Positions 4,299-59,667 of a DNA stretch of 64,000 bases are shown piece by piece (within the stretch, counting starts at the first letter, position 1; the number at the start of each line of letters is the position of its first letter). The stretch covers positions 5,669 through 69,668 of the forward strand of contig JBDRPX010000037.1 of the NCBI GenBank assembly GCA_043826565.1, in the 5' to 3' direction. The translations under genes and the position numbers were made by a program. This stretch comes from Candidatus Omnitrophota bacterium. GTDB lineage: Bacteria; Omnitrophota; Gorgyraeia; B26-G9. A model generated the notes under the pieces. It saw only the letters and a list, made by a program, of their open reading frames with translations. It was not told where the DNA came from and searched no databases.

Positions 4299-6131
4299 AT
4301 GATGATTGGTGCACACTATATTGATGATAATAAGTGTGAATTTACGGTTTGGGCTCCTTTTTTGAATGATGTTTCTTTGAAAATTGTTTCGCCGGATAGT
4401 ATGACTATTCCGATGCAAAAGGATGAACAGGGTTATTGGCGGATTATTGTCGAAAATATTCATGCGAACGTCTGCTACTTATATGAGCTTGATCATGCCC
4501 AGGAAAAACCCGATCCTGCGTCTTTTTATCAACCCAAAGGAGTACATGGCCCGTCACAGGTAATTAACCATAAAAATTTTTCTTGGGGAGACGGCGGATG
4601 GAATGGCATCTCCATTGATAAGATGATAATCTATGAGCTTCACGTAGGGACATTCACTCCGGAGGGAACCTTTGATGCGATTATTCCCCGGCTTGAGGAA
4701 TTAGTGGATCTTGGTATAAATACAATAGAAGTTATGCCGGTAGCGCAATTCCCGGGAACAAGGAACTGGGGGTATGACGGGGTGTACCCATATGCGGTAC
4801 AGAATTCTTATGGCGGCCCGGACGGTTTTAAACGGTTTATTAATGCCTGTCATAAAAAAGGCATAGCGGTAATTCTTGATGTTGTTTATAATCATCTTGG
4901 CCCGGAAGGTAATTACCTTTGCGAGTTCGCGCCATATTTTACTAATAAATATTATACCCCTTGGGGAAATGCTATAAATTTTGATGATGCCTATAGCCCG
5001 GGGGTAAGGAATTATTTTATTGAAAACGCTTTAAGCTGGCTTGAAAATTATCATGTGGACGGTTTGCGATTAGATGCGGTACACAGCATATATGATTTTG
5101 GGGCAAAACATATATTAGAAGAACTGGCGGAAAAAATTTATGATCTTTCTGTCCAAAAAACAAGGAAGCTGTATTTAATAGCCGAAAGCAATCTTAACGA
5201 TATCCGGATTATTAAGCCGGTCGGGGCCGGCGGTTATGGGATTGATGCCCAGTGGTGTGATGATTTTCATCATTGTCTTCACGTTTTACTTACCGGGGAG
5301 CAAACCGGATACTATGCTGATTACGGAAGTACCGGGCAAATGGTAAAATCCTTAAGAGAAGGATTTGTATATTCCGGTCAATATTCTTCTTTTAGAAAAA
5401 AATGTTACGGCAGTTCCTCTAAAGATATCCCGGCAAATCAGCTAATTGTTTTTTCACAAAATCATGATCAGGTGGGCAATCGTATGCTCGGAGACAGGCT
5501 TTCCGGGCTGGTATCATTTGAAGCTTTAAAACTGGCGGCAGCAGCAACAATCTTGTCTGTATATACTCCGATGATTTTTATGGGGCAGGAATATGGAGAA
5601 GAAACACCGTTTCAGTATTTTGTAGATCATTCGGACGAAGATTTAATTGCGGCAGTACGCCGGGGAAGAAAAGAAGAATTTGCCGCGTTTAAATGGAGCG
5701 GAAATCCTCCGGATCCGCAGGATGAGGGATCTTTTTTAGCTTCAAAATTGAAATGGGAACAAAAGAATGAGGGAAGGTACAAGATTTTATGGCAATTTTA
5801 TAAAATTCTTATTATGTTGAAAAAACGTATTCCTGCGATTTCTGATGGCGGAAAAACCCAGATGGAAGTATCGTATGATGAGACGAAAAAACTTATTTTT
5901 TGGAGAAGATGGTATAAACGAAGTGAAATTTTTTGTATAATGAATTTCAGCAAAGAAGATGCGCAGTGCCGCATCGTTCTTCCTTTAGGCAAATGGAAAA
6001 GATTGATAAATTCCTCGCAAGAGCAATGGATGGGAAAAGGGGCATTGCTGCCTGAGTATATAGAGAATAACCAGGAGATCCAGGTGCGCTCATTCGGGAT
6101 AGCTTTGTATGAGAAAGAATTACTAAAATAG
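4299..6131 (+). CDS. treZ: malto-oligosyltrehalose trehalohydrolase (GH13, CBM48 N-term)
   Basis: N-term CEFTVWAP...; GINTIEVMPVAQFPGTRNWGYDGV; ILDVVYNHLGPEGNYL; ~610 aa is typical of TreZ. Confidence 0.8.
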   Translation: MMIGAHYIDDNKCEFTVWAPFLNDVSLKIVSPDSMTIPMQKDEQGYWRIIVENIHANVCYLYELDHAQEKPDPASFYQPKGVHGPSQVINHKNFSWGDGGWNGISIDKMIIYELHVGTFTPEGTFDAIIPRLEELVDLGINTIEVMPVAQFPGTRNWGYDGVYPYAVQNSYGGPDGFKRFINACHKKGIAVILDVVYNHLGPEGNYLCEFAPYFTNKYYTPWGNAINFDDAYSPGVRNYFIENALSWLENYHVDGLRLDAVHSIYDFGAKHILEELAEKIYDLSVQKTRKLYLIAESNLNDIRIIKPVGAGGYGIDAQWCDDFHHCLHVLLTGEQTGYYADYGSTGQMVKSLREGFVYSGQYSSFRKKCYGSSSKDIPANQLIVFSQNHDQVGNRMLGDRLSGLVSFEALKLAAAATILSVYTPMIFMGQEYGEETPFQYFVDHSDEDLIAAVRRGRKEEFAAFKWSGNPPDPQDEGSFLASKLKWEQKNEGRYKILWQFYKILIMLKKRIPAISDGGKTQMEVSYDETKKLIFWRRWYKRSEIFCIMNFSKEDAQCRIVLPLGKWKRLINSSQEQWMGKGALLPEYIENNQEIQVRSFGIALYEKELLK

Positions 6132-6317: not shown

Positions 6318-8756
6318 ATGGAGATTAAAGTTATGAATAGATACTTATGTGTACATGGTCATTTCTATCAGCCTCCCCGGGAAAACCCCTGGTTAGAGGA
6401 AGTGGAACTTCAGGATTCGGCTTATCCTTTTCATGATTGGAATCAGCGGATTACTACTGAATGTTATGCTCCGAATGCTGCCTCCCGGATTTTAGATAAT
6501 GAAGATAAGATTACTGATCTTATCAGCAACTATGCTCAGATCAGTTTTAATTTTGGCCCAACACTGCTTTCCTGGATGGAACGGAATATGTCCGATACAT
6601 ACAAGATGATCCTGGAAGCGGATAAATTAAGCCAAAAGAACTTTTCCGGACATGGCTCGGCGATTGCTCAGGTTTATAACCATATGATAATGCCGCTGGC
6701 CAATACCAGAGATAAGCATACGCAGGTGGTTTGGGGGATAAAGGATTTCAAGTATCGTTTTAAAAGAGAACCGGAAGGGATGTGGCTTGCGGAAACAGCA
6801 GTGGATACTGAAACATTGGAAGTTTTAGCTGAGCATAATATAAAGTTTACAATTCTTTCTCCGTATCAGGCACAGAACGTTAAAACCATAGCCGCTCAGG
6901 AATGGACTGATGCCAGCGGAGGAAAAATAGATCCCAAAATGCCGTATCTGTGTATCCTTCCTTCGGGTAAAAAAATTAGTATTTTCTTTTACGACGGGCC
7001 GGTATCACGGGATATTGCTTTTGGAGGTTTATTGGATAACGGAGAAAAATTAGCCAGCCGGCTAGTGGGAACATTTTCCGATAATGAAGACCAGCCGCAG
7101 CTAGTGCATATTGCTACGGATGGGGAGACTTATGGCCATCATCATCATTACGGAGAGATGGCTTTATCATACGGATATCACTATATAGCGTCCCGACAGC
7201 TTGCTCATATTACGGTTTACGGAGAATATCTGGAAAAGTTTCCGCCGACTCATCAAGTGCAGATAATTGAGAATTCCTCGTGGAGTTGTATGCATGGAGT
7301 AGAGCGATGGCAAAGTGATTGCGGTTGTAAGCTCGGAGGAAATAACTGGAATCAGGCTTGGCGCGGGCCGCTGCGTAAGGCTATGGACTGGCTGCGGAAT
7401 AGTTTGACTAAAATTTATGATAATCAAATAGCTGAATATGTTAATGATCCGCACAAGGCCAGAAATGATTATATAGAAATCATATTAAACCGGACGGATA
7501 AAAATATCGATAAGTTTTTTGCCGAACATGGGGTGGCTACGCTGTCGGGTCAGGAAAAAACAAAAGTTTTAAAACTGCTGGAAATGCAGCGTCACGCAAT
7601 GCTGATGTATACAAGCTGCGGCTGGTTTTTTAATGAAATTTCCGGTATAGAAACGATCCAAATAATGCAGTATGCGGCCCGGGCTATTCAGCTGGCCAGA
7701 GAAGTCAGCGAAAAGGATCTGGAGCCGGAGTATATTAAAAGACTGCATAAAGCTCTCAGTAATCTTGAGGAATATGAGACCGGAGCTTTTATCTATGAGA
7801 AATTTGTAAAGCCAACGGTTATTGATCTGCATCGTGTGGGAGCGCATTATGCAGTATCGTCTCTTTTTGAAGAATATGAAAAAAAGAGCGACATCTATTG
7901 TTATACGGTCGAAAGCGAGGTTTATGAGCGTTCCCAAGCCGGCAGGCAGAAGATTGTTTTCGGGCGGGCGGCAATAAGGTCGAATATTACATATGAAGAG
8001 AATATTGTAAGCTTTGCGGCTTTGCATTTAGGGGATCATAACCTTTTCGGCGGGGTTCGTGATTATATGGGTGCGGAACCATTTGAAGAAATGCAGCAAC
8101 AGATAAAAGAAGCGTTTTTAAAAAGTAATATATCGGAGATAATCCATCTTATTGATACTCACTTTGGCAGCCATAATTATTCGTTATGGCATTTGTTTAA
8201 GGATGAACAGAGAAAAGTGCTTAATGAGATACTTGTTTCCACCCTTGATGAAATCGAAAATTCATTCCGCCAGATAAACGAACATCATTATCCGGTAATG
8301 CAGGTTATAAAAGAAATGAATATGCCTTTACCTAAAATCTTTTCGACGACACTTGAATTTGTCGTTAACTCTGATATTAGAAAGATGCTGCAAAATAATG
8401 AGACGGATCTGGAACGTTTGAAAAATCTTGTTAAAGAGGCGAGAAGGTGGTCGCTGGAGCTTGATCGTCCGATGTTGAAATATGTTGCCAGCAAAAGGAT
8501 TCTTAAGTTAATGAAAAAGCTGCAGCAAAGTCCGGAGGATGTCTCCGTAATAGAAGTTATTGAGGGATTGTTTAAGATCCTGCGTCCGCTGGGATTAGAG
8601 CTTAGTTTGTGGAAAACTCAAAATATTTACTTTTCTATTAATCAGCAGCTGCATGATTTAATGATTAGAAAAGCTGACCAAAAAGACAGGATTGCCAGGA
8701 AGTGGATTAAACATTTCGACACGCTGGGTAATTATTTGCGCGTAAGAAGCAAGTGA
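6318..8756 (+). CDS. glycoside hydrolase family 57 protein (long form with C-terminal DUF3536-like extension)
   Basis: HGHFYQPPRENPW is the hallmark GH57 N-terminus; 812 aa; start may be ATG 6333. Confidence 0.7.
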   Translation: MEIKVMNRYLCVHGHFYQPPRENPWLEEVELQDSAYPFHDWNQRITTECYAPNAASRILDNEDKITDLISNYAQISFNFGPTLLSWMERNMSDTYKMILEADKLSQKNFSGHGSAIAQVYNHMIMPLANTRDKHTQVVWGIKDFKYRFKREPEGMWLAETAVDTETLEVLAEHNIKFTILSPYQAQNVKTIAAQEWTDASGGKIDPKMPYLCILPSGKKISIFFYDGPVSRDIAFGGLLDNGEKLASRLVGTFSDNEDQPQLVHIATDGETYGHHHHYGEMALSYGYHYIASRQLAHITVYGEYLEKFPPTHQVQIIENSSWSCMHGVERWQSDCGCKLGGNNWNQAWRGPLRKAMDWLRNSLTKIYDNQIAEYVNDPHKARNDYIEIILNRTDKNIDKFFAEHGVATLSGQEKTKVLKLLEMQRHAMLMYTSCGWFFNEISGIETIQIMQYAARAIQLAREVSEKDLEPEYIKRLHKALSNLEEYETGAFIYEKFVKPTVIDLHRVGAHYAVSSLFEEYEKKSDIYCYTVESEVYERSQAGRQKIVFGRAAIRSNITYEENIVSFAALHLGDHNLFGGVRDYMGAEPFEEMQQQIKEAFLKSNISEIIHLIDTHFGSHNYSLWHLFKDEQRKVLNEILVSTLDEIENSFRQINEHHYPVMQVIKEMNMPLPKIFSTTLEFVVNSDIRKMLQNNETDLERLKNLVKEARRWSLELDRPMLKYVASKRILKLMKKLQQSPEDVSVIEVIEGLFKILRPLGLELSLWKTQNIYFSINQQLHDLMIRKADQKDRIARKWIKHFDTLGNYLRVRSK

Positions 8757-13151: not shown

Positions 13152-13180
13152 TTGCTAAAAAGAAAAAACTATGGTATAAT
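13152..13180 (+). promoter_or_regulatory. sigma70-type promoter TTGCTA-17-TGGTATAAT driving the riboswitch leader
   Basis: -35 ttgcta 13152-13157; extended -10 tggtataat 13172-13180. Confidence 0.55.
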
Positions 13181-13221
13181 TAAGTAGATTTAAAAAGTAT
13201 GTAATTTCTTAAATAAATCCG

Positions 13222-13362
13222 AAAAGGCAAAACTCAAGAAATTGAGTGACGCAAAGCCACGGGTCTAAAGCTTGATGCTAGGATCGCCGGGTATATCGAT
13301 AACGCGAAACTAGGAGCTTGTGATGGCCGGACTGCCGAAGAAAAAGGTAGTCTGGTTTTTTA
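13222..13362 (+). promoter_or_regulatory. c-di-GMP-I (GEMM) riboswitch aptamer (13222-13296) plus intrinsic terminator expression platform (13327-13361)
   Basis: GGCAAAAC-CUCAA-GAAA-UUGAG-UGACGCAAAGCC-ACGGGUCUAAAGC...GCCGGGU aligns almost position by position with the Vibrio Vc2 aptamer (GGCAAACC-P1 GNRA hairpin-GGGACGCAAAGCC-...CUAAA...). Downstream hairpin CCGGACUGCC-gaagaaaaa-GGUAGUCUGG followed by UUUUUU. Confidence 0.8.
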
Positions 13363-13551
13363 ACATATGGAGACAAGATCATGAGGATACAGCGTGTTAC
13401 CCGAAAAATACAGGATGTATTAAGAGGGGATTTTGTACTTTACTCTCTCAAAAAAGAAGGAATAGTAAAGGTAATCTGGTTAACTGTGGTTACTTATATT
13501 ATTTTTTCTTTAATGATTATTTTAGGTAAATGATTACATTAAACCCCACAT

Positions 13552-13568
13552 AGTGATAAAATATCACT
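13552..13568 (+). promoter_or_regulatory. perfect palindrome AGTGATA-aaa-TATCACT (possible operator)
   Basis: 7-bp inverted arms, 3-nt spacer, located between the riboswitch and the promoter of gene A. Confidence 0.3.
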
Positions 13569-13648
13569 AATCTTTCCTAATTTATTATCCTTCAATATGT
13601 TATGCCTCTAAAAAAAGGCCATTTTTGTTTGCGCTACCCTCTAGAATA

Positions 13649-13657
13649 TGGTATACT
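13649..13657 (+). promoter_or_regulatory. extended -10 promoter TGGTATACT upstream of gene A
   Basis: tggtatact at 13649-13657; the same 9-mer recurs upstream of the sixth paralog (40478-40486). Confidence 0.4.
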
Positions 13658-13749
13658 TTAAAACCTTTTATGACTTCTCGCTTTTGCCCCTAACATTTTT
13701 TGTTTTAGCAGGTTAAGATTAATTAATAAAATAAAAGAACGTAGAAGAA

Positions 13750-16700
13750 ATGATGACCAGAAAAAGATTAAAGACTAGACGCTATACGCTGTGCGCTAAA
13801 CGCTTGGTTGTGTTTTTCCTGGTGCAGGCGATGGTTGCCGGCCCTTTGCCGGCGGCGCCGGCGGAGATGCTTACTCCCGCAATCCAAATTAACCATTCCG
13901 GACTGCAGCAGGCTTTTGTCGAAGCCGGCCAAGGAGAAAATTTTCTGCGGGAGTTTGTGGTCCGCAGAAAAGAGATATTATGTGAAGAATATTACGATAA
14001 GCAGAAACTATTACGTAAGGCGGCATATTCTACCGGAGAGATATTTGCGCAGTTTGATTATGACCAACACCGTCAGCTGCAGCATCCTGAAGCAATAGTT
14101 GATACTCTGGTTAACGCTGTTTTAACCAATACGGATATAGGAAAACAACAGGCCGCGGCGTATGTTTTAGAAACTATCAGAATCCCCAGGCGGGATCCCG
14201 GCATAGTTCGGACGGTCAGCAAAACAGATTTAAAAGTAATTGCCGAGAGCCTCGGTATTGCGCTGCACGGAGCTGATATTGATACGATAATTTTAAGTAA
14301 TGGGATCGTGCTTATGCCGGAGGGATATTCTCCCTCAAAAGTACGTGCTCGGGAACAGGTTAGCTTTTCTACTTTGTATTCCGGGGAACGGGCGTTTGGA
14401 GAATATCTTAGCCGGTTGGAAGCGCGGCGTGAGTCCGGGGAAAATAATTCGGCTTTGGATGAGGAGATTGTAACTCTTCGAAAGCTTAGGGATATGCGTA
14501 GATATATGCTTCGATTAACAGAAAAGGCGGATCAGGAGCGTGATTCGGTGATACCGATGCAGGAATATATTGCCGAGAAGGTAAAAACTGAATGGCTGGC
14601 TTGTGCCGGACAAGAAGGCCTTAGTAAAGACCAAGCTTTAAAATCAATCCAACAGGCGCGTATGCTGAACGTCGATTTAAAGTTAGCAGAGGATTTGCTA
14701 GATTTAGCCAAAAGGCATGAACAGGCTTTAGAAAACGAGTGGGTAATTGTTGGGCAGGAATTGCTTCAGGCACAGGAATTGTCCCGGCAAAACAGTAGTC
14801 AGGCAAACAGACAAATAGCTGATTATTGGCAGCGTTCTCACGCGTGTTTAGAACAACAGCTTGAGCAGGCCAAAGAGGAACGGAAAAAGGCTGAGCAGAA
14901 TTTTGAGGAAGAACGCACTTTACAGCTTAGGCAGGTTGAGGAGCACAGAAAAATCGTCAGAGATAATTCTCCGCACCAGATTTTGTTCGCCAAAAAAAGG
15001 AATATTAACACGATTACTTATCGCTTATTAACAATAGCCTTATGTTGTGCCGGGATAGAAGAGTTTAATGAATTAGACATAGACCTGGGCGCGGCCATTA
15101 TTATCGAGCGCGGAGAAAACGGGCCGTTTACAACCAGAGATGATTTTGTGCGGCGGATGTGCGAACGTTTAGGCGCGGATAAGAAATCGTTGATGAAAAA
15201 TATCTGCAAAAATTTCAGTAAGCTTACTATCCGCTTTTCCGCTGAACCTGTCGGAGAGCTGGAACTGGGGGTTGCCAGATATTATATGGACACGATGGAC
15301 GAATTACAGCGGGCGAAAGAACGATTTTCTTACCTGCGGCAGAGGCTGCATCAGGCCCAAGAAGAGCTGAGAGTTGCTTTATATCAGGAGTTAAAAATAA
15401 ACAATTCGTTTGCTGCGGCTGTGAGCGGTTATCCTGAATTGCAGCTGGATATTGAACGGACAGTTTCTTATTGTGAACGCAGTAGAGTTTCCTTCTCTGA
15501 TTATCATTCGCCAAAGTCTGAGTTTATTTCGGTTTTGCATGCTTTACAAAAAATATTTTCAAAAAGAGAGAACGCGGTTAGTTCCCGGATTGATTTCTAT
15601 ACCAATATTATATTTCAATTAATAGGCAGGCTTAGTTACTGGGAGGAAAAAGAAGATAAAGGGCTGAAGTTTTCTTCGAAAGAGATCCATGAATTTGAGC
15701 AGATAAAAATAATGTTGAGACTGCGCAAAATTGCGGAAAGCGGGCGCTATGTTTCGGACATCCATTGTTTTCAGCGTTTGCGGGATGAAGTAAGCAGGAT
15801 TAACTATACGGATGTATTACCGGGTTATCTGTCTACGGTAGCGATGAATGAGACATTATATGCCCGGGTGAATTCTCCGTGGAACATATTGATGAAAAAT
15901 CACCGGCGGGAGGCTCTGACGATGATTCCGGGAGCGGATGATGCGGTTCTTTTAGGAGTGCCGGCAAGGCATATCCTCTCCGAAGAACAGTCGCATCGAA
16001 TATTGGAGATCCCCATAGGATGGGAAATAGAGTTTACTTCGTCACAGCGGTATTTGCCTCCGGTGCCGCGGGAAAAATGGATAGATGCCATTATTCCCAA
16101 CGCCATAGAATTGCACGATAAAGGAGTTATTCTGGCGGATTTGCACAGGTTAAAAGAATATAATCTGCAGCCGACCTGGAGTTGGCGGACACAGCTATTG
16201 ATGCTGCGCAGAGTTATGTCCTTGGCGGGATTTAGCGGGACGCAGGCGGATTCTTTGCAGATTAATGTAGGGATTAAAGAAAAGGATTGGCAGATATTAA
16301 CTCCGGTGATGCGGGAAGACCTGGAAACCGATGCGCACTGGCTAATGTTTAATATTGTAGCAGCTTATGTCTCACCGGGAAGGATTGAACGCAAAAAAGT
16401 GGATAAAGTAGTCCAGGCAAAAGATGTTCAGGTTGTAGATATCGACGGAGAAAAATACCGCCGTTTCGAATATGCGTTTTGTGATTTTGAGAATATCGAA
16501 ATGATCGCGCCGCTGGTGCAGTATGGCCATACTTGTTTATTTTATTATTACTATGTGAGAAACGAATATGAACTGGGAAATTATAATGTTCCCGAATTAT
16601 ATAAGAAATTAGCCGCATTGGGAGAAAAATTAAGAAAGGCGGCTGACCGGGAGGATCTGGTAGGATTATTTGGTATCCAGCTGGATAAAGCTGGTACATA

Positions 16701-16905
16701 CCGGGAAAGCAGTTTGTTGACTCACCGGGAAAGAGGATCTAAACAGATTTTACAAATTAAAGGTATGTTGGATAATTTTCTGCGGGAATTTTGTGATCTT
16801 GCCGGATTACCCCGGGAAGTTGTATTGCCTGCAGAAGAACAAAAGCTTGTGCAGAAATTGAGTGATGAGGGATTTGAGATATTAATTATTGAACAGGCGA
16901 TATAG
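13750..16905 (+). CDS. large secreted protein, member A of EQAI-terminus paralog family (coiled-coil/Q-E-R-rich central region)
   Basis: signal-peptide-like N-term (LVVFFLVQAMVAGPLPAAPA), post-signal motif MLTPAIQINHSGLQQAF, C-terminal ...LIIEQAI-stop. Confidence 0.7.
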   Translation: MMTRKRLKTRRYTLCAKRLVVFFLVQAMVAGPLPAAPAEMLTPAIQINHSGLQQAFVEAGQGENFLREFVVRRKEILCEEYYDKQKLLRKAAYSTGEIFAQFDYDQHRQLQHPEAIVDTLVNAVLTNTDIGKQQAAAYVLETIRIPRRDPGIVRTVSKTDLKVIAESLGIALHGADIDTIILSNGIVLMPEGYSPSKVRAREQVSFSTLYSGERAFGEYLSRLEARRESGENNSALDEEIVTLRKLRDMRRYMLRLTEKADQERDSVIPMQEYIAEKVKTEWLACAGQEGLSKDQALKSIQQARMLNVDLKLAEDLLDLAKRHEQALENEWVIVGQELLQAQELSRQNSSQANRQIADYWQRSHACLEQQLEQAKEERKKAEQNFEEERTLQLRQVEEHRKIVRDNSPHQILFAKKRNINTITYRLLTIALCCAGIEEFNELDIDLGAAIIIERGENGPFTTRDDFVRRMCERLGADKKSLMKNICKNFSKLTIRFSAEPVGELELGVARYYMDTMDELQRAKERFSYLRQRLHQAQEELRVALYQELKINNSFAAAVSGYPELQLDIERTVSYCERSRVSFSDYHSPKSEFISVLHALQKIFSKRENAVSSRIDFYTNIIFQLIGRLSYWEEKEDKGLKFSSKEIHEFEQIKIMLRLRKIAESGRYVSDIHCFQRLRDEVSRINYTDVLPGYLSTVAMNETLYARVNSPWNILMKNHRREALTMIPGADDAVLLGVPARHILSEEQSHRILEIPIGWEIEFTSSQRYLPPVPREKWIDAIIPNAIELHDKGVILADLHRLKEYNLQPTWSWRTQLLMLRRVMSLAGFSGTQADSLQINVGIKEKDWQILTPVMREDLETDAHWLMFNIVAAYVSPGRIERKKVDKVVQAKDVQVVDIDGEKYRRFEYAFCDFENIEMIAPLVQYGHTCLFYYYYVRNEYELGNYNVPELYKKLAALGEKLRKAADREDLVGLFGIQLDKAGTYRESSLLTHRERGSKQILQIKGMLDNFLREFCDLAGLPREVVLPAEEQKLVQKLSDEGFEILIIEQAI

Positions 16906-16998
16906 AGTGGATTGCAAATTGCAAATAACAAATTGCAGATTAAACTAATGAAAATAAAAAAACAAATAAACTACATAATAATATTTTTGCTGGTGCAG
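16891..16998 (+). repeat. 108-nt junction repeat copy 1 (3' end of upstream gene + spacer + 5' signal-peptide coding of next gene)
   Basis: gaacaggcgatatagagtggattgcaaattgcaaataacaaattgcagattaaactaatgaaaataaaaaaacaaataaac...ctggtgcag, near-identical to 19720-19827. Confidence 0.9.
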
Positions 16999-19734
16999 AT
17001 GATAGCAATGAACAATGTTGTTTTTGCTCTTTCTCCTCAAATTAATATTAAAGGGGCAGCCTTGCAGAAAATTTTTGAGAGTAATAAAAAACCGCAAACC
17101 AGCCAGTTAATGGAACATGATTCCGGGAGGGGATACAGAGTATTTGATTTGCCGGAAGGATATCGTGATATTACTGTTGTTTTGATCCATCGCGGGGCCG
17201 GTTTTGGGAACCGGGGTGCGGTTAATAACCTATTAGTTAGTTTACAGCATCAATTCCGCGGTAAAAATATTAGTTTGCGATTAGCTTATAGTTTGGGGCG
17301 GCCGGGAGAAGAATCTGATCAGGAACTGCGTATGCAACAGGAGCTGATTGCTCAAAGAAATAGTAAGGCAGAAGCTGAAGGCCTGCCGAAAATTGAATTG
17401 GAAACATATTATACATTTACCATGGATGGAACACCGGTCATATCGGGGCTTCGAAAAACTGATGTGGCGATTTATTTTGGGTATGATTCTGCGGAAATGT
17501 TGGATGTGGCGCAGGATGAAGCTGATTTTTTAAGAAGAGAACAGATGGATGCAAAACTGGCATTTCATATTCCGATTTATGCTACCGGATACAGGCTTCG
17601 CGATGTTGATTATGCCCGCATTCTCAGAGGGGGAACAATACACAGAGTTATTCCGACAGCTAATTTTTTAAAAGGAACAGGCCGGATTGTTATTAACCCG
17701 GAACTTGTTGCGAAAAGTATCAAAATTGACGGATTAAATAAACAAGATGTTTTGCAGGAAAGAAGAAAGTTATTAGATAAACTGGGAGTAACGGAGATAC
17801 CTGATGGAGCTGAAGAAACAACTTGGGCATTTGCTTATACCCATAATTACGGAAAACTGGAAGAGTTTTTAAGAAATTGTGGAAAAAGCAAACAAAAGAT
17901 AACTCTTTTTCTTGCTCCAGGATATCTTATTAACCGGACGGTTAAATATTATTATAAAGATAATATCCGGCAGTTATTGGAATATTTTAAGGCTATCCCG
18001 GACAATGTTAATATTGTATTCTTAGAAGAAAATTTAGAGCGTAAAGACGCATATAACCAGATCATGCTTTTATCAGGAGTGTTGACGGAATATGGTTTAA
18101 AAGGGGGGTTTCCCAATCTGATTACCGGCGATCAATCGACCAGTGAAGTACTTTCGGCGCGCAGATTATTTGTGCATGACGGGATGAATGCGCAGGATGG
18201 AGATGAATTATGGCAGGGGTTATTTGCCGGGCCGCTGCAGAGATTTACCGTGCAATACAATGACTTGGAAGATATAGATAATAATTGGCCTAATCTGTTT
18301 ACTGCTAATCCCCAGGGAATGCCGGGAGAGTTTTCTGTCTTTAAGGCCATGGAAATGCAGATGGAATTTATTGCGGCCATAGACAGTATTCTAGAGCGGC
18401 GCAATATTGTTGATCATATTGGAAAGACGATTGTTGCCGAGGCAAGCCGTCAGGCTGCGGATGAGAACCTGGAAGCGATGTTAGATACTGCAGTGGTATT
18501 AAGAGAACAGTTAAATGGTTCGGTTTTTGAAAAAGTTTCCGCAGATATTTTTCAGGATGTTTATGTCTGTGTAAATCCCCGGACAAACCAATTTGTTACT
18601 TTATATGTTCCGACCAACATTGCTCAGCAATGGGAAACTAGTAATGGTGAAAAAGGTAAGCGTTTTGGCGGCCAGTATTCAGGAATGGTTGAACTGCACA
18701 ACCTGACGGGTATCGTCGGTGGAGAGCAACAGAAGCTTACTTTGGCTTTTGCCCATCCGGAAAATGGATTAGAACAAAATAATGATTTATCTATTCCCGG
18801 CAAAAAAGATCCGATGCTTGCTTTGACTGATGAGACATTTGGTTCCGGAGAAATAGCTAACTATGTGCAGAGGGTGCGGAATTTAATTATGGGAGAAAGC
18901 ATTGAGATTGTTAATATCCATTCTGAGCAGGAATTTAATGATTATCTGGGGATAGCGCCGGAGGAACATTCTGCGATTTTGTATTCAGAACATCCGGAGA
19001 CAACCTTAAGAGTTATGTGTAAAAACTTTAATGAAGATAAACCGCTGGCTAATATTAGAAAAGAACATACTTTTGCCGCGCGTATTCAGGCTAATGGCCG
19101 GGAATATATTTGGTTTGCCCAATTCTCCATCGGAGATGATAAGCAGATAAGATATAATGAAGCATATTTAATGAAGGTATTAGAGGAAACTGAGCATAAG
19201 TACCTGGAAGTCGGCCATGGATATTATGATGTGCCTAAAAATCCTGTTCCCGGTCATTGCTGTATTGATCTTATGTATGGAATTGATAACCGCTTTCGAT
19301 TTCAGGAAGCGCATATTAAGCATGCCCGGGCATTATTTGAACTGCGGTTAAAAGCGCTGGATAAGCTCTATAAACCTGCTGCATTTGTTATTCCTTCCGG
19401 ACAAATAATTTCAGATATTGCATTGTATTTTTACGGCCGGTTTGGATTTTTGCCCTTGGACTACGGAGCCAGAGCAGATGTGACTTCTAAATATTTAATT
19501 CCTTACCGGATTAAATCTCCGGGAAAAATGATCGGGGAGGGGATGGAAGTTTTTGGTAAATATCTGATTATCGGAGCGTTTGGAGATTTTGCTCTGGTGT
19601 TGAGACCGCAAGGGATCAAAGGGAGTAAAAGACATTTTGATATGCCGGAGATGTTAAAAAATAGAGGTATTCCCATATCAATGCAGCAACCGCCGGCACG
19701 AAGACATCTGGAGCTTATTGAACAGGCGATATAG
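16948..19734 (+). CDS. large secreted protein, member B of EQAI-terminus paralog family
   Basis: [17 protein letters not shown] signal peptide; ALSPQINIKGAALQKIF motif; C-term LELIEQAI-stop; C-terminal ~150-aa domain (EYIWFAQ...GHGYYD...FGFLPL) is shared with member E. Confidence 0.75.
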   Translation: MKIKKQINYIIIFLLVQMIAMNNVVFALSPQINIKGAALQKIFESNKKPQTSQLMEHDSGRGYRVFDLPEGYRDITVVLIHRGAGFGNRGAVNNLLVSLQHQFRGKNISLRLAYSLGRPGEESDQELRMQQELIAQRNSKAEAEGLPKIELETYYTFTMDGTPVISGLRKTDVAIYFGYDSAEMLDVAQDEADFLRREQMDAKLAFHIPIYATGYRLRDVDYARILRGGTIHRVIPTANFLKGTGRIVINPELVAKSIKIDGLNKQDVLQERRKLLDKLGVTEIPDGAEETTWAFAYTHNYGKLEEFLRNCGKSKQKITLFLAPGYLINRTVKYYYKDNIRQLLEYFKAIPDNVNIVFLEENLERKDAYNQIMLLSGVLTEYGLKGGFPNLITGDQSTSEVLSARRLFVHDGMNAQDGDELWQGLFAGPLQRFTVQYNDLEDIDNNWPNLFTANPQGMPGEFSVFKAMEMQMEFIAAIDSILERRNIVDHIGKTIVAEASRQAADENLEAMLDTAVVLREQLNGSVFEKVSADIFQDVYVCVNPRTNQFVTLYVPTNIAQQWETSNGEKGKRFGGQYSGMVELHNLTGIVGGEQQKLTLAFAHPENGLEQNNDLSIPGKKDPMLALTDETFGSGEIANYVQRVRNLIMGESIEIVNIHSEQEFNDYLGIAPEEHSAILYSEHPETTLRVMCKNFNEDKPLANIRKEHTFAARIQANGREYIWFAQFSIGDDKQIRYNEAYLMKVLEETEHKYLEVGHGYYDVPKNPVPGHCCIDLMYGIDNRFRFQEAHIKHARALFELRLKALDKLYKPAAFVIPSGQIISDIALYFYGRFGFLPLDYGARADVTSKYLIPYRIKSPGKMIGEGMEVFGKYLIIGAFGDFALVLRPQGIKGSKRHFDMPEMLKNRGIPISMQQPPARRHLELIEQAI

Positions 19735-19827
19735 AGTGGATTGCAAATTGCAAATAACAAATTGCAGATTAAACTAATGAAAATAAAAAAACAAATAAAC
19801 CACATAATAATATTTTTACTGGTGCAG
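19720..19827 (+). repeat. 108-nt junction repeat copy 2
   Basis: about 2 mismatches versus 16891-16998. Confidence 0.9.
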
Positions 19828-21069
19828 GTATTGTTTTTAATTCCGCATGCTTTAGCTTTAGATGAATATACATTGTCCCCCCAGCTGGTGGTAGGCGGAG
19901 GTTTTTTTGGTGAAGCTTATCTGCGGTTATTAGCGCAGGACGAAGCGCGTTTAAGCCGGCAGGAACAGGAAATTTTCACGCAGCTTTTTGATGCGCTTGA
20001 AATAGACCTGAACAGTTTGGCTTGGGACACACAAGGGAATGATTATGATTTATCCGAAGTGCCGGTTGCTGATATTAATGAAGATACTTTGCGGGAAATG
20101 TTTTGTTTGCCTTTTAGTTATAAAATCGGTGGTACTTTAGGGATTATTCGTTATCAAAATTTTCCGATATTAATTTATCTTTGTGATCAAGTAAGGAACG
20201 TAACTTTTATTGACCTGACAAAATATTATCGTTCATCATTTGCCGCTAATTTAGGCTGGGGAATTAAACAGGATATATGTATAATCTTTAAAAGGAAGAA
20301 TTTTTTTAAAGTAAGTCAAATTGAAATAACTCATCCGTATGTTACCGTAGCTATCAACGGCAGCGGTGATCTTGCTCATATTACCGAATATGATTTTAGT
20401 GATGAAGAGGCGGATGTCTTCCCCAGAAGAAAGATAGAATTACCTTTATTGCCCGGGGTCTGGATGCCCAAAAGTACGTCAAGTTATTTAATTGCCGAGG
20501 CAACTGCAGAATTTGTGCGTCCGGGGATGAGAGTGCTGGTTATTGGAACCGGAGCTGGCCTGGAAGCGCGGATTGCCGCGGAAAAAGGAGCCTTGGTCGA
20601 TGCGGTTGATATTAAGAAGCTGGCAGTTAGAAATACAAAACTGACATGTTCAGAAGAAGAGTATGCGGTGCGGGTTAATGCTTTTGTTAATAATATGTTT
20701 CATGGCTTGGGAAAATATGATTTGATTATCTGGAATATGCCGCATTTTGTCGGGACGGAAGAGCCAAAAGAGGATTTTCCCGATTATTCCAATAGTTCTG
20801 ATTTTACGGGGAAAATATTGCGGGAATTTGCGCAAAACGTATGTTCGCATTTGAAAAAAAATGGAAAAGCTGTTGTGATTAACAAAAGCGATGAACAGGT
20901 GAAACAGATCCTGGAATATTTTTCGGGTAAACATGTTGAGGATTATGGGGTCTCTAAAAAACGATACTCTCAAGGGTATATTATAGATAATCAACGGGTA
21001 AAAAGATGGAAGAAGATGAGGCCTTTCCCGGAAGGGATAATAAGTGTTTATATGGAGCAGGCGGTATAA
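19777..21069 (+). CDS. secreted protein, member C of EQAI-terminus family, with class I SAM-methyltransferase-like Rossmann domain
   Basis: [17 protein letters not shown]; TLSPQLVVGG motif; VLVIGTGAGLEARIAAEKGALVDAVDI (motif I) and IIWNMPHF (NPPY-like motif IV); C-term VYMEQAV-stop. Confidence 0.7.
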   Translation: MKIKKQINHIIIFLLVQVLFLIPHALALDEYTLSPQLVVGGGFFGEAYLRLLAQDEARLSRQEQEIFTQLFDALEIDLNSLAWDTQGNDYDLSEVPVADINEDTLREMFCLPFSYKIGGTLGIIRYQNFPILIYLCDQVRNVTFIDLTKYYRSSFAANLGWGIKQDICIIFKRKNFFKVSQIEITHPYVTVAINGSGDLAHITEYDFSDEEADVFPRRKIELPLLPGVWMPKSTSSYLIAEATAEFVRPGMRVLVIGTGAGLEARIAAEKGALVDAVDIKKLAVRNTKLTCSEEEYAVRVNAFVNNMFHGLGKYDLIIWNMPHFVGTEEPKEDFPDYSNSSDFTGKILREFAQNVCSHLKKNGKAVVINKSDEQVKQILEYFSGKHVEDYGVSKKRYSQGYIIDNQRVKRWKKMRPFPEGIISVYMEQAV

Positions 21070-21073
21070 GTAA

Positions 21074-21105
21074 AGAGTAGTGAGTAGCAAGTAGAGAGTA
21101 GAGAG
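21074..21105 (+). repeat. tandem heptamer array (AGAGTAG TGAGTAG CAAGTAG AGAGTAG) directly after stop codon
   Basis: 7-nt period places TAG in all three frames. Confidence 0.7.
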
Positions 21106-21123
21106 AAAGATAAAAAGTAAATA

Positions 21124-23568
21124 ATGAAAATAAAAAAACAAATAAACCACATAATAATATTTTTGCTGGCGCAAACATTTTTGTTCGGACAGTGTGTTTG
21201 GGCCGGACAGACGGATACTCTTGCGCCGCAATTAAAGGTGTATACACCTGTTTTGCATAAAGATTTTCTCCAACAGATGTCTATTTCTGTTGTCCCGATG
21301 CTTGCTGAACATCTTGATAAATTAGATATCAAGGAGCAATACATAGACGGGAAAGAGGATACTTTAACATTAATTCGCCAGGCGCATGACGGGCTTATAA
21401 GAGCAGGATATCCGATTTCTTCCCGGATAGTCAAAACATATACTCCGGAATACTTGCATATTGACGGTTGCTCAGCTTTTTCAACGGGAAGAATTCAAAT
21501 GGTTTGTTTTCGGGTAAACGGAAATTTTGATCAAAAAAGCATTGCTATCCCGCGGCCTCATGATGAAGCATATTGTTTTTCTTTAATAAGCGGAGGAAAA
21601 GTTGTCGGCCATGGAGTTCTAGCCTATGATTACCATCATCCGGATACGGTATTTTTTAGATATGCTATACACGGCAGCCATTTTATTGTAGATGGATATG
21701 ATTTTACAAATCAGGGGTTTGGAACAGACAGCCTCACATTACTGGCGGCAATCATAAAAACCGGGAAGCTTTTTCCTGCGAATATGCGGAAAATGGAGTA
21801 TTTAGCCAGTAATGATGACCTTTTAAAATGGGGCAATTTTTCTCCCATTTATAACCGGATGAAGAAGTTTTTGCTGAAATCCGGATTTGTTGATGCCTCA
21901 GAAGAGAGAATTGCGCCGTTTTTTGATATTACTAAACAAAACATCGGATTTAAGTTAGGAAATAATGATGAAGGCAGTGTTGCCGGACAAAGAGTTTATT
22001 TGTCAGCTAGTGTTGCCGGCTGTATTGGTAAGCCGGCAAAATATATTCATGATGCTTTGCTGAAAGTACCTCCGGAACTTATTGCGGAAGCATATTACCG
22101 GCGTTTTAACTTATTATCAAATCCATATGGCAAGGAATTTCAAGGTTTGTGGGGCCGGGATGAAACCAAAGCTATAGAATTCCTTGCGAGAGGATATAAA
22201 ACATTGCATGATCTTAATAGTCAGGGCCATGTCCGGGTAGATTTTATTCCGCATGATATGAAAGGAGATGTTCCGGAAGGATTAGAAGGCATGGTTTTGT
22301 TCAGTAATTCCAAGAAAGCTTATCAGACTGAATTTGTAGAATGGGCATGGGTTCCGGAAGTAGAAGCATGGCTGCCGGTAGCAGATGAAAGCGCTAAGAC
22401 TTCGCAACGGCCGGCATTTATACGTGTTGTGCTTACCGCGGATAAAAAGAAAGTAGTAAGAGTAGCGAAGAGCCTTACAAAAGATAAGTTACAGGAACTT
22501 ATCTTAGAGCATGGAGATTGTATTGTCTGCGGCAGAGTTCCGCCAAGTGCTCACTTGTCACTTGTGCGTGACAGTTCTCTGGGCATACGTGAAAGCGGAA
22601 ACTATACTATTGATGGAAAAGGAAATAATTTGTATATAGCATCTCTTAGCCGGGAAGGGGTGCCGACCGGTTTTCAGTTTTTTGGGAACGGAGAAAAGGT
22701 TCCACTGCGGGTAGCTGTAAAAAGAAATCGTGAAGGGAAAGTGATGGAGAGGATCGAATCCCAGAGATATTTTGCCGGAGAAACATTGGCGCAGATATAT
22801 GCGAAAAAAGGGCAGTATTGGGTGATGCCGGTCTATGTGCAAACCCCTGTTCATTCAGCCCGGCATACAAAGATCCAGGCTGGCTCACGTTTTGTTGTGA
22901 CCGGAGAAAAAGGAAAAAAAATCAAGAGCGAAGTAACAGAAGAAGTGGAATATAATTATTATCTGGATGCGGCATATTCCGGAGCAGAGGCGCAGCTTTT
23001 GATCGGCCGCTCCGGGGTGCCGGTTTATTTATATGTTTCCGGTGATGTCCGGAAGGGGGTGCCGGCATTAGAGTGCTTGTTAAAATTGATAGAGGTGAGG
23101 AATAGCCGGGATGAAGTTATTGATGTTATAAACTCATCTAATGCCGAGATATCCCGGCAAATTCTGCAAATAGCAGTAAAAAATGCCCGGGTTAAAGATG
23201 GACGCGTAGTAGTAACACGAATACCGGTAGAATCCTCTTTTTTAAAACGAAGCACTTTAGCTGTACGCTGCGGCGGAGAGGAAATATGTGTTAATCAAAA
23301 ATTGCCGGATTTCCCCGGTCAAAAATATGCGGAGCTGGTTTATGGAAAAAATAAATTTGATGCGCCGGTTCCGATTAGTATCAGAATAGGATTTTATGAG
23401 GGTGATGATCCGCTTAATTTTAACAAAATAAAATTTCATGTGTTAAAGGAATTTTTCATTGAACGTGCGCAAAATAATAAGTTCTATGAGACCAGAGAAA
23501 CAAAGACTTTGGTGGAAACTGAAAAAATGCCGCTGGAAAATTTAACTATTCTGGAACAGGCGATATGA
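21124..23568 (+). CDS. large secreted protein, member D of EQAI-terminus family
   Basis: [17 protein letters not shown]; TLAPQLKVYTPVLHKDF; C-term LTILEQAI-stop. Confidence 0.75.
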   Translation: MKIKKQINHIIIFLLAQTFLFGQCVWAGQTDTLAPQLKVYTPVLHKDFLQQMSISVVPMLAEHLDKLDIKEQYIDGKEDTLTLIRQAHDGLIRAGYPISSRIVKTYTPEYLHIDGCSAFSTGRIQMVCFRVNGNFDQKSIAIPRPHDEAYCFSLISGGKVVGHGVLAYDYHHPDTVFFRYAIHGSHFIVDGYDFTNQGFGTDSLTLLAAIIKTGKLFPANMRKMEYLASNDDLLKWGNFSPIYNRMKKFLLKSGFVDASEERIAPFFDITKQNIGFKLGNNDEGSVAGQRVYLSASVAGCIGKPAKYIHDALLKVPPELIAEAYYRRFNLLSNPYGKEFQGLWGRDETKAIEFLARGYKTLHDLNSQGHVRVDFIPHDMKGDVPEGLEGMVLFSNSKKAYQTEFVEWAWVPEVEAWLPVADESAKTSQRPAFIRVVLTADKKKVVRVAKSLTKDKLQELILEHGDCIVCGRVPPSAHLSLVRDSSLGIRESGNYTIDGKGNNLYIASLSREGVPTGFQFFGNGEKVPLRVAVKRNREGKVMERIESQRYFAGETLAQIYAKKGQYWVMPVYVQTPVHSARHTKIQAGSRFVVTGEKGKKIKSEVTEEVEYNYYLDAAYSGAEAQLLIGRSGVPVYLYVSGDVRKGVPALECLLKLIEVRNSRDEVIDVINSSNAEISRQILQIAVKNARVKDGRVVVTRIPVESSFLKRSTLAVRCGGEEICVNQKLPDFPGQKYAELVYGKNKFDAPVPISIRIGFYEGDDPLNFNKIKFHVLKEFFIERAQNNKFYETRETKTLVETEKMPLENLTILEQAI

Positions 23569-23573
23569 TCAAA

Positions 23574-23591
23574 GAGTAGCGAGTAGAGAGA
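23574..23591 (+). repeat. GAGTAG heptamer repeat (AGAGTAG CGAGTAG AGAG) after stop codon
   Basis: same motif as 21074-21105 and 30676-30710. Confidence 0.6.
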
Positions 23592-23607
23592 ATATATAAC
23601 GTAAGAT

Positions 23608-25593
23608 ATGAAAATAAAAAAACAAATAAACCACATAATAATATTTTTACTGGTACAGGCGATGAGTGCTGGTTCCCTGGCTATTGCTGTTCCGGAAGAC
23701 CGGACTTTATCTGCGAAAATTATCATTAATCAGCAATCCTTGCAGGAAGTATTTGCCCGTCTATCTCAACAGGATGATGAGGTGTTACAATGGGGTAGTT
23801 CCCGTATTCCTAACTCTCTGCCTCAAGAAAGTATCCCCGCGGAAATGTGGCGGGATACTTTTAGCAGAAATCCGGTTTCTCGATATATTCAAAATATTAG
23901 AGATAATATTACCGGAGCAGATGTTGATATTACTGTTTTAGATTCCACGGCGCAGTTATTAGAGTATCTGGGATTGACAGAACCGAGAGATATTGTTTGT
24001 TCCGGATATCTTAGTGAGCTGCAGCTTATGTGTCAATCAGCGGAAAAGCCGGAGTTTGTCAAAATGGTGACGCAATTAAAACAGCTTATGCCATCACAAA
24101 TGCCTGTGGGTAATATGCTGGCAGCACGTATTTATAAGAATGGGTATGAATATATCTGGATAACCCAGGTGCTTCCCGATCAGTCTATCCCGCCGGATGA
24201 TTTTATTTTTAATGAAACATATTTAGTAGCTGAAACTCAAAAGGGAAGAAAGAAATATGTTGAAATAGGTCATGGTTATTATGGAGTCAGCGGAGTTCAA
24301 GGCGGAAGAATCGGCTTATCTTTTGGGATTGATGAGGATTATCAATCCCGGCATAGAAACGGCGGGAAATTCAGCCATGCGCATAATATATTTGAATTCA
24401 GGCTGCAGGCATTAGAGACACTCTTTAGGCCGAGTATTCTTATTGTGCCTCAGGCGCAGGCAACAAGTGCACCTGATTTTTCCCGGAAAACAGTTTTATT
24501 TTACGCCGGATTCGGGTTTCTGCCTTTAAAAGATTTTAGAAGGGAACAGCTGGTTAACGGATATCTTTTGCCGGTGAAAATAAACCGGACTTTGGCAAAG
24601 ATAAAAAATCCCGCGGCGGTTTTTGACGATAAGTTTATGTATAAAGCCGGCGACTTCATGCTGATTTTAAGAGATAAAAGAACGGAAATAAAAGATGTTT
24701 GCAGACGATACCGGATCTTTGATGAAGCCGAAGTCCGGCAATATGAAGCGCTGAATGCGCGTTACGGTCAAAACCCCTCAGCTTTAGATGACTCAGAAGC
24801 ATACGATCTGTTTGGGTATTTGAGTATTACAGGAAGGCTTAACCAGGGAAATAATTATGCCGTGCTTATTCAGAGAATCGGATGGCTGAAGGCTCAGGCC
24901 CAAAAAGGAGGAGAATTTAAACAGCAAATCGGCGGTAAATACATTGGCCATATTGTCGGGATGAACGATGTCTTGAATCCGGCAGCGCCGTATTTAGATA
25001 TTAAGCCCCAGGATACTGTGCTTGATATCGGTTTTGCCGTCGGCGGAGAAACGATTGGTTTAGCAGCAGCTCATCCGGAGGCTGATTTTGTTATGGCTAA
25101 CCCGGAACTGAGATTTGTACAGCATGCTGTTCGTCAGGCGGAATCTTACCGGCCTTTGTTAAATAATTTGCGGATTGCTCCAAAAGTTTTTGAGGAACTT
25201 GCTTTACCGGCACATTCGGTTAATCATATTATTATTCGTAACATTTTCTTTGACTTAGATGAGGTGAAGATAAAAGATATGCTGATAGAATTAATGCGCA
25301 TTGCCGCCCCGGATGCTACGATTGTAATTACCGGATATCGGCATTTAGAGAAAAATACACAGGAAAATGCTCGAGCTGGTATAAAACCTGAGTATAATCT
25401 GGAGTTATTGACAGAAGTATGTGCAGAGATGGGGATTAGTTATACGGTTGATCATCCCACATCTTTTCCTAATCGTGATGCGCGGATCAGGCTAATTCCG
25501 GCGAGTCGACGAAATACATTATTCGAAGAGACCCAAGCTGTGAGTTTAAAAAAGAAAGCAGAGCCAGCTGTTTTTGTCGAACAGGCAATATAA
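23608..25593 (+). CDS. secreted protein, member E of EQAI-terminus family; N-terminal half shares domain with B, C-terminal half SAM-MTase-like
   Basis: [27 protein letters not shown]; [18 protein letters not shown]; YEYIWITQ...GHGYYGV...FGFLPL; [14 protein letters not shown] (motif I); C-term VFVEQAI-stop. Confidence 0.75.
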
Positions 25594-42947: not shown

Positions 42948-43182
42948 ATATTAAAAAAACCCTCCGAAATTTCCTTTTACTTCGACTATTGCAGTACCTC
43001 ATGGTTTATGCTAATATACTATCTACTGATTAAATAACCACCCACTAATGGAACTTTTGAAAAATTTTCAGATGCAAGGCCCCGACGAGTGAGCGCGGAG
43101 GCGTCCATTTCGGACGTCGCACAAGTGAAAGAGGAGGAAACGCCGCAGATGGGTGTTTTGCAAAAGTTTCCAAATGCATTTC

Positions 43183-58218: not shown

Positions 58219-58830
58219 ATGAGAAATGGGTTTACATTATTAGAAGTATTGATTGGGATTACCATATTTGCGATTGTCGCGGCTTCGGTTTATACCAGCC
58301 TGGCCTTAGGGATCAAGGTTTTTAAGCAGGAAGAAGCGCGTGATGAGCTGATGCAGGAAGCCATGGTCACTATCGGAGAAGTGCAAAGGTGCGTGCGCTG
58401 TGCTTTTATTAACCCGGAAAATGAAAATATTAAGTTTTTGGGAACAAAGGACAGTTTAGATTTATTTTCGGTTAATCAGGAAGGCGATGTGGAAAATGTT
58501 TCTTTTTATCTGGAAGCTTCCGATGGAGACCCCGGAGTGAAAGCTCTTTTTCGGGTAACCCGGCCGTATCTACAAAGTGAAAATGAAGAAATCCCGGGTA
58601 ATGTCGAGCTTATCCATGAAGGAATAGAGAAATTTGAATTAAGTTACTTTGACGCGAAAGATCAGAAGTGGTATGAAGAATGGCCCGAGGAATTGACTCT
58701 TCCGTCACAGATCAAGCTGGATATCGGGTTTAAGGCGGCGAACGAAAAACAAAGCGGTATTGAGCTGGCTAAGTATATGAATATCCCCTTGGCCAAAATA
58801 ATAAATTTTTCAGGGCCGGAAAGTGAATAA
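58219..58830 (+). CDS. prepilin-type N-terminal cleavage/methylation domain protein (minor pseudopilin, GspJ/PilW-like)
   Basis: GFTLLEVLIGITIFAIV class III signal. Confidence 0.6.
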   Translation: MRNGFTLLEVLIGITIFAIVAASVYTSLALGIKVFKQEEARDELMQEAMVTIGEVQRCVRCAFINPENENIKFLGTKDSLDLFSVNQEGDVENVSFYLEASDGDPGVKALFRVTRPYLQSENEEIPGNVELIHEGIEKFELSYFDAKDQKWYEEWPEELTLPSQIKLDIGFKAANEKQSGIELAKYMNIPLAKIINFSGPESE

Positions 58831-59665: not shown

Positions 59666-59667
59666 TT

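Follow-up and report, generated by a model that had tools for sequence, protein, structure and literature searches.

The leader upstream of a five-gene array of secreted paralogs in an uncultured Omnitrophota bacterium is, judging from its sequence and predicted folding, a genuine c-di-GMP riboswitch of class I; it is followed by an intrinsic terminator, and its predicted ligand is c-di-GMP. Its aptamer can be closed by two alternative 3' strands, an arrangement that recurs in related leaders. We consider the whole best explained by a riboswitch that acts on transcription as a c-di-GMP ON switch, an explanation to which we give somewhat better than even credence. Apart from the duplicated strand in the expression platform, the element is of an ordinary kind within a well-known class. 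If read correctly, it probably places an orphan secreted family under c-di-GMP control. All positions refer to the window, the stretch of 64,000 nucleotides that was analyzed as a whole, and the features of the leader and its surroundings are collected in the table.

We scanned the entire 64-kb window against Rfam 15 with Infernal cmscan, and the sole match above gathering score was to the c-di-GMP-I family, RF01051 (67.5 bits at a gathering score of 35, E = 4.7e-11, positions 1-87 of the model, its full length). Even with a permissive rescan, no other GEMM-like site was found in the window. A preliminary description made from the letters alone had assigned the leader to GEMM-I and named the RF01051 score as a check; the match goes well past what chance would give and confirms the assignment, and all the leader elements it listed (GGCAAAAC, CUCAA-GAAA-UUGAG, UGACGCAAAGCC, ACGGGUCUAAAGC and GCCGGGU) lie where it had placed them. 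The aptamer has the features that define type 1: two hairpins, the ACGCAAAGCC junction, a GNRA tetraloop and its receptor (consensus CUAA...UAu). The first hairpin contains the pairs G27-C52 and C28-G51 and a 6-bp stem (13232-37/13242-47) capped by the GAAA tetraloop (13238-41), and all six stem pairs showed double-sided changes among five homologous leaders. In the proximal form, the receptor is made of UCUAAA at 13264-69 and UAG at 13279-81.

The cmscan alignment, transferred to Vc2 numbering by our own mapping (anchors C44, G83 and A47; landmarks GACGC-A47 and AG83C), equates G13226 with Vc2 G20, C13250 with C44 and A13253 with A47. The roles of G20, C92 and G83 in Vc2 have been stated previously (bioRxiv 10.1101/617340), and an A in place of G at position 20 marks the GEMM-Ib variant responding to c-AMP-GMP (PMC9481103). 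The G at this position points to c-di-GMP rather than c-GAMP as the ligand, and we rejected the GEMM-Ib variant on the presence of G13226. The c-di-GMP-I-GGC variant (RF03167), defined by a G at the A47 position (GACGCGAA) and by a best-in-clan score above 59 bits, was likewise rejected: the window has GACGCAAA, no RF03167 match reached the gathering score in the window, and RF01051 was the best clan member. A GGC/UAU variant aptamer was dismissed with G20 and A47 both in place. The element is not a tandem riboswitch either: it has one Rfam match, and the stretch between the strands contains no further 5' half of the form GGCAAA...GACGCAAA.

Table 1. Features of the leader and the genes downstream, in window coordinates.
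Feature	Positions	Strand	Basis
Sigma-70-type promoter, TTGCTA-17-TATAAT	13152-13180	+	Consensus match only
c-di-GMP-I aptamer, proximal-3'-strand form	13216-13300	+	Infernal alignment, RF01051
First aptamer hairpin (Vc2 P2)	13227-13252	+	cmscan alignment; covariation in homologous leaders
P3 5' strand AGCC-A-CGGGUC and tetraloop receptor 5' half UAAA	13255-13269	+	Pair lists of both forms
Extended P3 apex	13268-13319	+	Minimum-free-energy fold
Proximal 3' strand, GAUCGCCGGGUaUAUCGAU	13282-13300	+	cmscan alignment
Distal 3' strand, GAUGGCCGGACUGCCGAA	13322-13339	+	PSSM score; homologous leaders
Intrinsic terminator	13327-13361	+	Fold energy; covariation
50-aa ORF	13381-13533	+	Gene call on Logan contig; coding status putative
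Candidate second promoter, TTGCGC-17-TGgTATACT	13629-13657	+	Read from the sequence; inference only
Five paralogous genes (EQAI array)	13750-25593	+	Co-directional; likely regulated operon

The promoter, earlier called a good sigma70 promoter, matches the consensus at 10 of 12 positions and has an upstream TG (13172-13173), but our scan yielded about as many such sites in shuffled sequence; we regard a sigma-70-like promoter at this place as plausible, with transcription starting at about 13187. The terminator, also proposed earlier as a 10-bp hairpin followed by U6, stood up well. Its arms, CCGGACUGCC (13327-13336) and GGUAGUCUGG (13346-13355), enclose a 9-nt loop, the U-tract occupies 13356-13361, and the hairpin has a folding energy of -20.5 kcal/mol (z = -5.4 in comparison with shuffles). 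Among six homologous leaders, 95% of the cells in the stem were paired and two pairs showed compensatory changes, a degree of conservation matched by 2 of 500 shuffles. With a 9-nt loop, the hairpin is absent from the output of our terminator scan, which is limited to loops of 8 nt. Just ahead of it, an AUG at 13323, six nucleotides after an AGGAG (13312-16), belongs to a 68- to 69-aa frame (13320-13529) that crosses the terminator, probably by chance; the AGGAG itself is base-paired within the extended apex helix. We rejected a leader peptide translated through the terminator, as it has no counterpart in the related leaders.

The P3 5' strand of the aptamer is able to pair with either of two 3' strands. 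Infernal's best alignment in the window takes the proximal one, aligned as GAUCGCCGGGU-a-UAUCGAU. This strand forms a perfect P3, but one extra nucleotide (A13293) is inserted in it, and the place of C92, the base that pairs with the ligand, is taken by U13296. We took 97 distinct 3' strands from metagenomic aptamers with exactly the same P3 5' strand; in these, the C92 column holds C in 96, A in one and U in none. The distal strand is a second and more canonical copy, with the tail U-G-C-C-G-A-A: it reproduces the family consensus GacAGCcggGcUgCCgaa, with C13335 (within UGCCGAA) equivalent to C92, C13336 to C93 and G13326 to G83. A PSSM built from 76 independent strands gave it 19.4-19.7 bits without gaps, in comparison with 15.4 bits for the proximal strand after a 4-bit gap charge, and the next-best site in the leader other than these strands scored -15 or lower. 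The distal strand has departures of its own, namely G13320 in place of the receptor A, G instead of A before G83 and, in lower P3, the mismatch C57-A31. A G at the receptor-A position occurs in one of the 97 natural strands, making the 3' half of the receptor poorer in the distal form, and P1 of this form has only 2-3 bp.

The distal strand overlaps the 5' arm of the terminator: it takes in the arm (13327-13336) and the five bases preceding it. A structure mutually exclusive with the terminator, which the preliminary description had called for, is thus present: the P3 5' strand of the aptamer pairs with the terminator 5' arm. The minimum-free-energy fold also has an extended P3 apex, a helix between AAGCUU..CUAG (13268-81) and CUAG-GAGCUU (13310-19) that shuts the proximal strand into an apical hairpin. 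A classical antiterminator formed between the proximal and distal strands was rejected, the two having only a 4-bp CCGG palindrome in common. More generally, a covariance-model match can report the wrong closing strand and thereby mask both the nucleotide that contacts the ligand and the switching logic.

The layout of a proximal and a distal strand is present in four other leaders: L096 (identical to L124; Omnitrophota RA.bin136), L123 (an Elusimicrobiota MAG), L125 (Omnitrophota) and the second aptamer of L122 (an unclassified MAG). The order is that of a 5' half, the proximal strand, a spacer of 12-40 nt and the distal strand fused to the terminator. In L096/L124 and L123, cmscan itself selects the distal strand (63.2 and 67.8 bits); RF03167 wins there only through its tolerance of a long P3 insertion, both leaders having A47. 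L125 and the second aptamer of L122 have a fully canonical proximal strand as well. For L122-L125, the search pattern prescribed the canonical tail of the distal strand, and the window and L096 are the only independent cases of it. L122 and L006, both relatives of the window leader, are true tandems; the two copies of L006 and the first aptamer of L122 have the distal strand only, fused to the same terminator.

Each strand has a signature of its own, CGAUAAC for the proximal strand in four of the five double-strand leaders and a CCGAAGAAAAGGU-like sequence for the distal, and in five leaders, which represent three lineages or more, proximal strands cluster with proximal and distal with distal. 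These two conserved signatures argue that both strands would have been present early and retained. The proximal tail CACCGAUAAC is conserved in L096, L123 and L122, and CGAUAAC(G) directly follows the proximal strand in the window (13297-13304), L096 (5971-5979), L123 and L122. Covariation in P1 was rejected as the cause of the CGAUAAC conservation, the 5' partner varying without compensating changes. We surveyed 111 aptamers of the same subtype, sampled without bias: only the window, L096 and, weakly, L050 had a second strand unaccompanied by another 5' half, and six of the 111 were true tandems; by this sequence survey, the double-strand layout is rare overall but recurrent in the clade.

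The regulated gene of the relatives begins 15-60 nt past the terminator. It is of prepilin type (GFTL[IL]E) after L122, L123 and L125, an MshEN+PilZ gene follows L096, and secreted proteins, including a transglutaminase-like one, follow L006. The prepilin and MshEN+PilZ genes are typical c-di-GMP outputs, and they add to the evidence that Omnitrophota use c-di-GMP for surface and secretion functions. L122 places a simple distal-only unit in tandem with a double-strand unit ahead of one pilin gene. In L006, near-identical c-di-GMP-I riboswitches at 5801-5911 and 6530-6640, 729 nt apart, each precede a secreted paralog starting MRKV(A/T)KIV..., a second case of secreted paralogs headed by riboswitches. 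Within the window, a Pfam scan of 19 ORFs found no GGDEF, EAL or PilZ domains.

The preliminary description had named the EQAI array as the next real genes. The array does lie downstream, but a 50-aa ORF and a candidate promoter had been passed over. The ORF, the first after the terminator, starts 19 nt past the U-tract, has GGAG eight nucleotides upstream and encodes a hydrophobic C-terminal segment; it is a putative membrane peptide and had no match in Pfam or NCBIfam. The candidate promoter shares ATGGTATA with the riboswitch promoter and has a -35 below the threshold of our scan; it resembles the ATGGTATAAT of the riboswitch promoter and the TATACT -10 regions of L096, L122 and L125. With the ORF and this promoter intervening, control of the array is likely rather than demonstrated. 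The five genes, each encoding a signal peptide and the C-terminus (I/L/M/V)EQA(I/V), are separated by gaps of 39-54 nt, and we found no convincing plus-strand terminator inside the array. We judge read-through into it likely and the predicted control of the array by the riboswitch plausible from this gene order. The riboswitch might instead control the 50-aa ORF only, or nothing beyond about 13620, with the array served by its own promoter at 13629-13657. The distance of 388 nt from the U-tract to gene 1, set against the 15-60 nt of the related leaders, fits this alternative, as do the TGgTATACT extended -10 motif, similar to the -10 region of the riboswitch promoter, and a sixth paralog at 40539 that manages without a GEMM element (a search for a second element ahead of it found none). 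It is less easily reconciled with the lack of a convincing terminator in 13533-13750, where only a 3-bp GCC/GGC hairpin was found, the co-directional genes with their short gaps and the poor -35, and we regard a separate promoter for the array as unlikely, though of appreciable weight.

Folding energies bear on the polarity of the switch, which the preliminary description had left open. Computed with ViennaRNA, which leaves out tertiary and ligand energies, the free fold with the terminator and the extended apex has -50.3 kcal/mol, the proximal aptamer with the terminator -41 to -45 kcal/mol and the distal aptamer without the terminator -35.4 kcal/mol. Before the 3' arm of the terminator has been transcribed, the two closures are isoenergetic (-32.0 kcal/mol for the proximal and -32.7 kcal/mol for the distal). 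In each of the five double-strand leaders, the fold with the terminator has the lowest computed energy, and stabilization of the proximal form alone would leave termination unaffected; the ligand must therefore favor the distal form if it is to act, which would give ON polarity. The distal-strand aptamer excludes the terminator, the terminator pairs C13335-G13347 and C13336-G13346 using the nucleotides equivalent to C92 and C93, and c-di-GMP would thus likely cause read-through. As in the pilM ON switch, the terminator 5' arm holds the aptamer 3' strand and the ligand-pairing C. The same polarity is the sole logic open to the single-strand relatives. It is also to be expected from L122, where, given the tandem logic described in PMC9481103, opposite polarities ahead of one pilin gene would make little sense.

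In the mechanism that we propose, an RNA starting near 13187 would first expose the 5' two-thirds of the aptamer (P2, the junction and the P3 5' strand), closable by either strand. The proximal strand, transcribed first, would form a compact hairpin without the ligand-pairing C. With no ligand, the terminator would form, the proximal strand or the extended apex holding the P3 5' strand, and transcription would stop at 13361. We infer that c-di-GMP stabilizes the distal-strand aptamer, so that C13335, C13336 and the stem nucleotides are denied to the terminator 3' arm and the polymerase passes 13361 to transcribe the 50-aa ORF and, most likely, the array of five genes. Considered by itself, ON polarity is favored by a modest margin over everything else, the opposite polarity is unlikely, and the remainder falls to a relic or other behavior. 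The role of the proximal strand could be that of a decoy tightening the OFF state, of a surrogate for early ligand capture or of a relic. The canonical proximal strands of L125 and L122 aptamer 2 and the conserved tails suggest that the proximal form may also bind the ligand, and such binding by itself would favor termination.

The latter effect is the core of an OFF switch, in which the proximal aptamer (13216-13300) binds the ligand with U13296 in a G-U wobble, the bound form frees the distal strand for the terminator and, with no ligand, the proximal strand gives way to the extended apex and the distal strand, which serve as antiterminator. Infernal's preference for the proximal form speaks for it, and RNAalifold on the five leaders returned P2, the proximal P3 and the terminator together, a coexistence seen in the Cd1 OFF switch (PMC9262584). 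The proximal strands have further retained aptamer-like unpaired nucleotides and a conserved tail, the C92U mutant of Vc2 is still partly c-di-GMP-responsive (bioRxiv 10.1101/617340), and in co-transcriptional folding the minimum-free-energy structure has the proximal P3 when the RNA reaches 13300 and the extended apex when it reaches 13322. The ligand-free ground state already contains the terminator, however, the distal UGCC being a free toehold for its 3' arm, and no ON state is evident. The two strands are alike rather than complementary, leaving no classical antiterminator, U at the C92 position occurs in none of the 97 natural strands, and in L122 an OFF unit would stand behind an ON unit for the same ligand. 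We regard an OFF switch as unlikely.

Alternatively, the proximal strand could be what remains of a tandem riboswitch whose second unit lost its 5' half by deletion. The element would then work like pilM, as a simple ON switch whose P3 carries a long insertion, and the second copy would serve no purpose. Tandems of c-di-GMP-I units are frequent (besides the six in our sample, 347 doublets in PMC9481103), L122 has a tandem beside a double-strand unit, and the proximal strand of the window, with U92 and its one-nucleotide insertion, looks partly degraded. The grouping of proximal and distal strands by their own signatures in five leaders and at least three lineages indicates, on the contrary, long-term maintenance, and we find such an origin quite improbable.

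We propose tentatively, as a view that we hold with rather less than even confidence, that the duplicated 3' strand is a distinct conserved platform of Omnitrophota, Elusimicrobiota and their relatives, where early proximal closure is followed by exchange for the distal strand, which blocks the terminator. The proximal surrogate would either hold the 5' strand for clean termination or let c-di-GMP bind before the switching strand is made. If this is true, the ligand would have more time to bind than the brief interval to which pilM-type ON switches are limited. The recurrent pair of 3' strands could serve as a compact natural case for the study of strand competition as a determinant of riboswitch polarity and leakiness, and the duplicated, competing 3' strand may be a new variant of the expression platform.

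The element can be compared with several known systems. It shares with Vc2 of Vibrio cholerae (RF01051, upstream of tfoY) the docking of the GNRA tetraloop and receptor, the junction, the equivalents of G20 and A47 and a pair of the C44-G83 type, but its compact form has U at the C92 position and one extra nucleotide, and a second strand supplies the canonical C. Vc2 gave no termination in vitro (bioRxiv 10.1101/617340), in contrast to the clear intrinsic terminator here. In the pilM ON switch of Geobacter metallireducens, a GEMM-I riboswitch for c-GAMP, the terminator sequesters the ligand-pairing C75 in the pair C75-G102 (PMC9262584). In both RNAs, the terminator 5' arm contains the 3' strand of the aptamer with the ligand-pairing C (C75 there, C13335 here), and the aptamer and terminator are exclusive; the ligand causes read-through in pilM and, by analogy, would do so here. 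The pilM switch differs in having A at the G20 position, with c-GAMP as its ligand, where the window has G, and in lacking an extra proximal strand. In Cd1, the OFF riboswitch of Clostridioides difficile (PMC9262584), an aptamer that looks complete can coexist with a terminator on one transcript, as is predicted here, but its antiterminator pairs the aptamer 3' strand with the switching strand, while the two strands of the window are near-copies that share one 5' strand as their pairing partner. Tandem c-di-GMP-I riboswitches (PMC9481103), such as the Bacillus thuringiensis triplet, likewise repeat aptamer sequence in one leader. The window repeats the 3' strand alone, with no second 5' half and a single Rfam match. 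The three-state add adenine riboswitch of Vibrio vulnificus embodies a similar idea, with an extra strand that competes to form a binding-incompetent apo conformer and so tunes the response; it is a translational purine riboswitch, has the competing strand at its 5' end and bears no sequence relationship to the element.

The products of the array appear to be an orphan secreted family, except for a domain of about 290 aa in gene 1 and weak methyltransferase domains. Counting the copy at 40539-42947, the six paralogs have 430-1051 aa, a Sec-type signal peptide followed by an L(S/A)PQ motif, and a C-terminal EQAI, EQAV or ENAI, and their middle regions are almost unrelated. Pfam and NCBIfam gave weak SAM-methyltransferase domains in genes 3 and 5; NCBIfam otherwise returned nothing useful for the array proteins. 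Genes 2 and 5 have in common a domain of about 280 aa (32% identity), for which a word-indexed search returned no relatives, AlphaFold gave a poor model (pLDDT 56) and Foldseek found no match with E below 0.1 in the PDB. The 814-aa paralog is identical to the NCBI protein ABII88_10565 of a 'Candidatus Omnitrophota bacterium' MAG, and gene 1 with the leader is identical on a Logan contig from SRR26275510; apart from this contig, exact-protein look-ups of the array proteins gave no match. Word-indexed searches with genes 4 and 1 returned only the query itself, and a genome scan with gene 1 revealed no relatives. Exhaustive HMMER searching located residues ~720-1010 of gene 1 (window 15900-16800), the ~290-aa domain, in 12 remote cluster representatives of 1.84 billion, mostly of 1.3-4.6 kaa and with unrelated domains (HATPase_c, radical SAM/B12-binding, TPR+HTH+FBPase-like and protein kinase).

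The 5' ends of genes 2-5 show 84-88% DNA identity over 67 nt, forming direct repeats that include the spacer ends (16943-17009, 19772-19838, 21119-21185 and 23603-23669), and 16886-16998 and 19715-19827 are 98% identical over 113 nt. The pattern of this repeat family suggests gene conversion or recent duplication, and the repeats probably account for the break of the Logan contig at the end of gene 1.

Elsewhere in the window, a prepilin-type gene (MRNGFTLLEVL...) lies with pseudopilin- and assembly-like ORFs at 58219-61023; unlike the pilin genes behind the related leaders, it is not preceded by a GEMM element. We found no tRNA genes in positions 1-64000. A match to the Bacillaceae-1 sRNA at 43820-43883 (34.7 bits at a threshold of 35) is probably a false positive, lying inside an ORF (43153-46047) that, from its N-terminal sequence, we take to be UvrA. 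Across the window (1-64000), the plus strand carries nearly all long ORFs, and each 2-kb bin has a positive GC skew (0.08-0.33).
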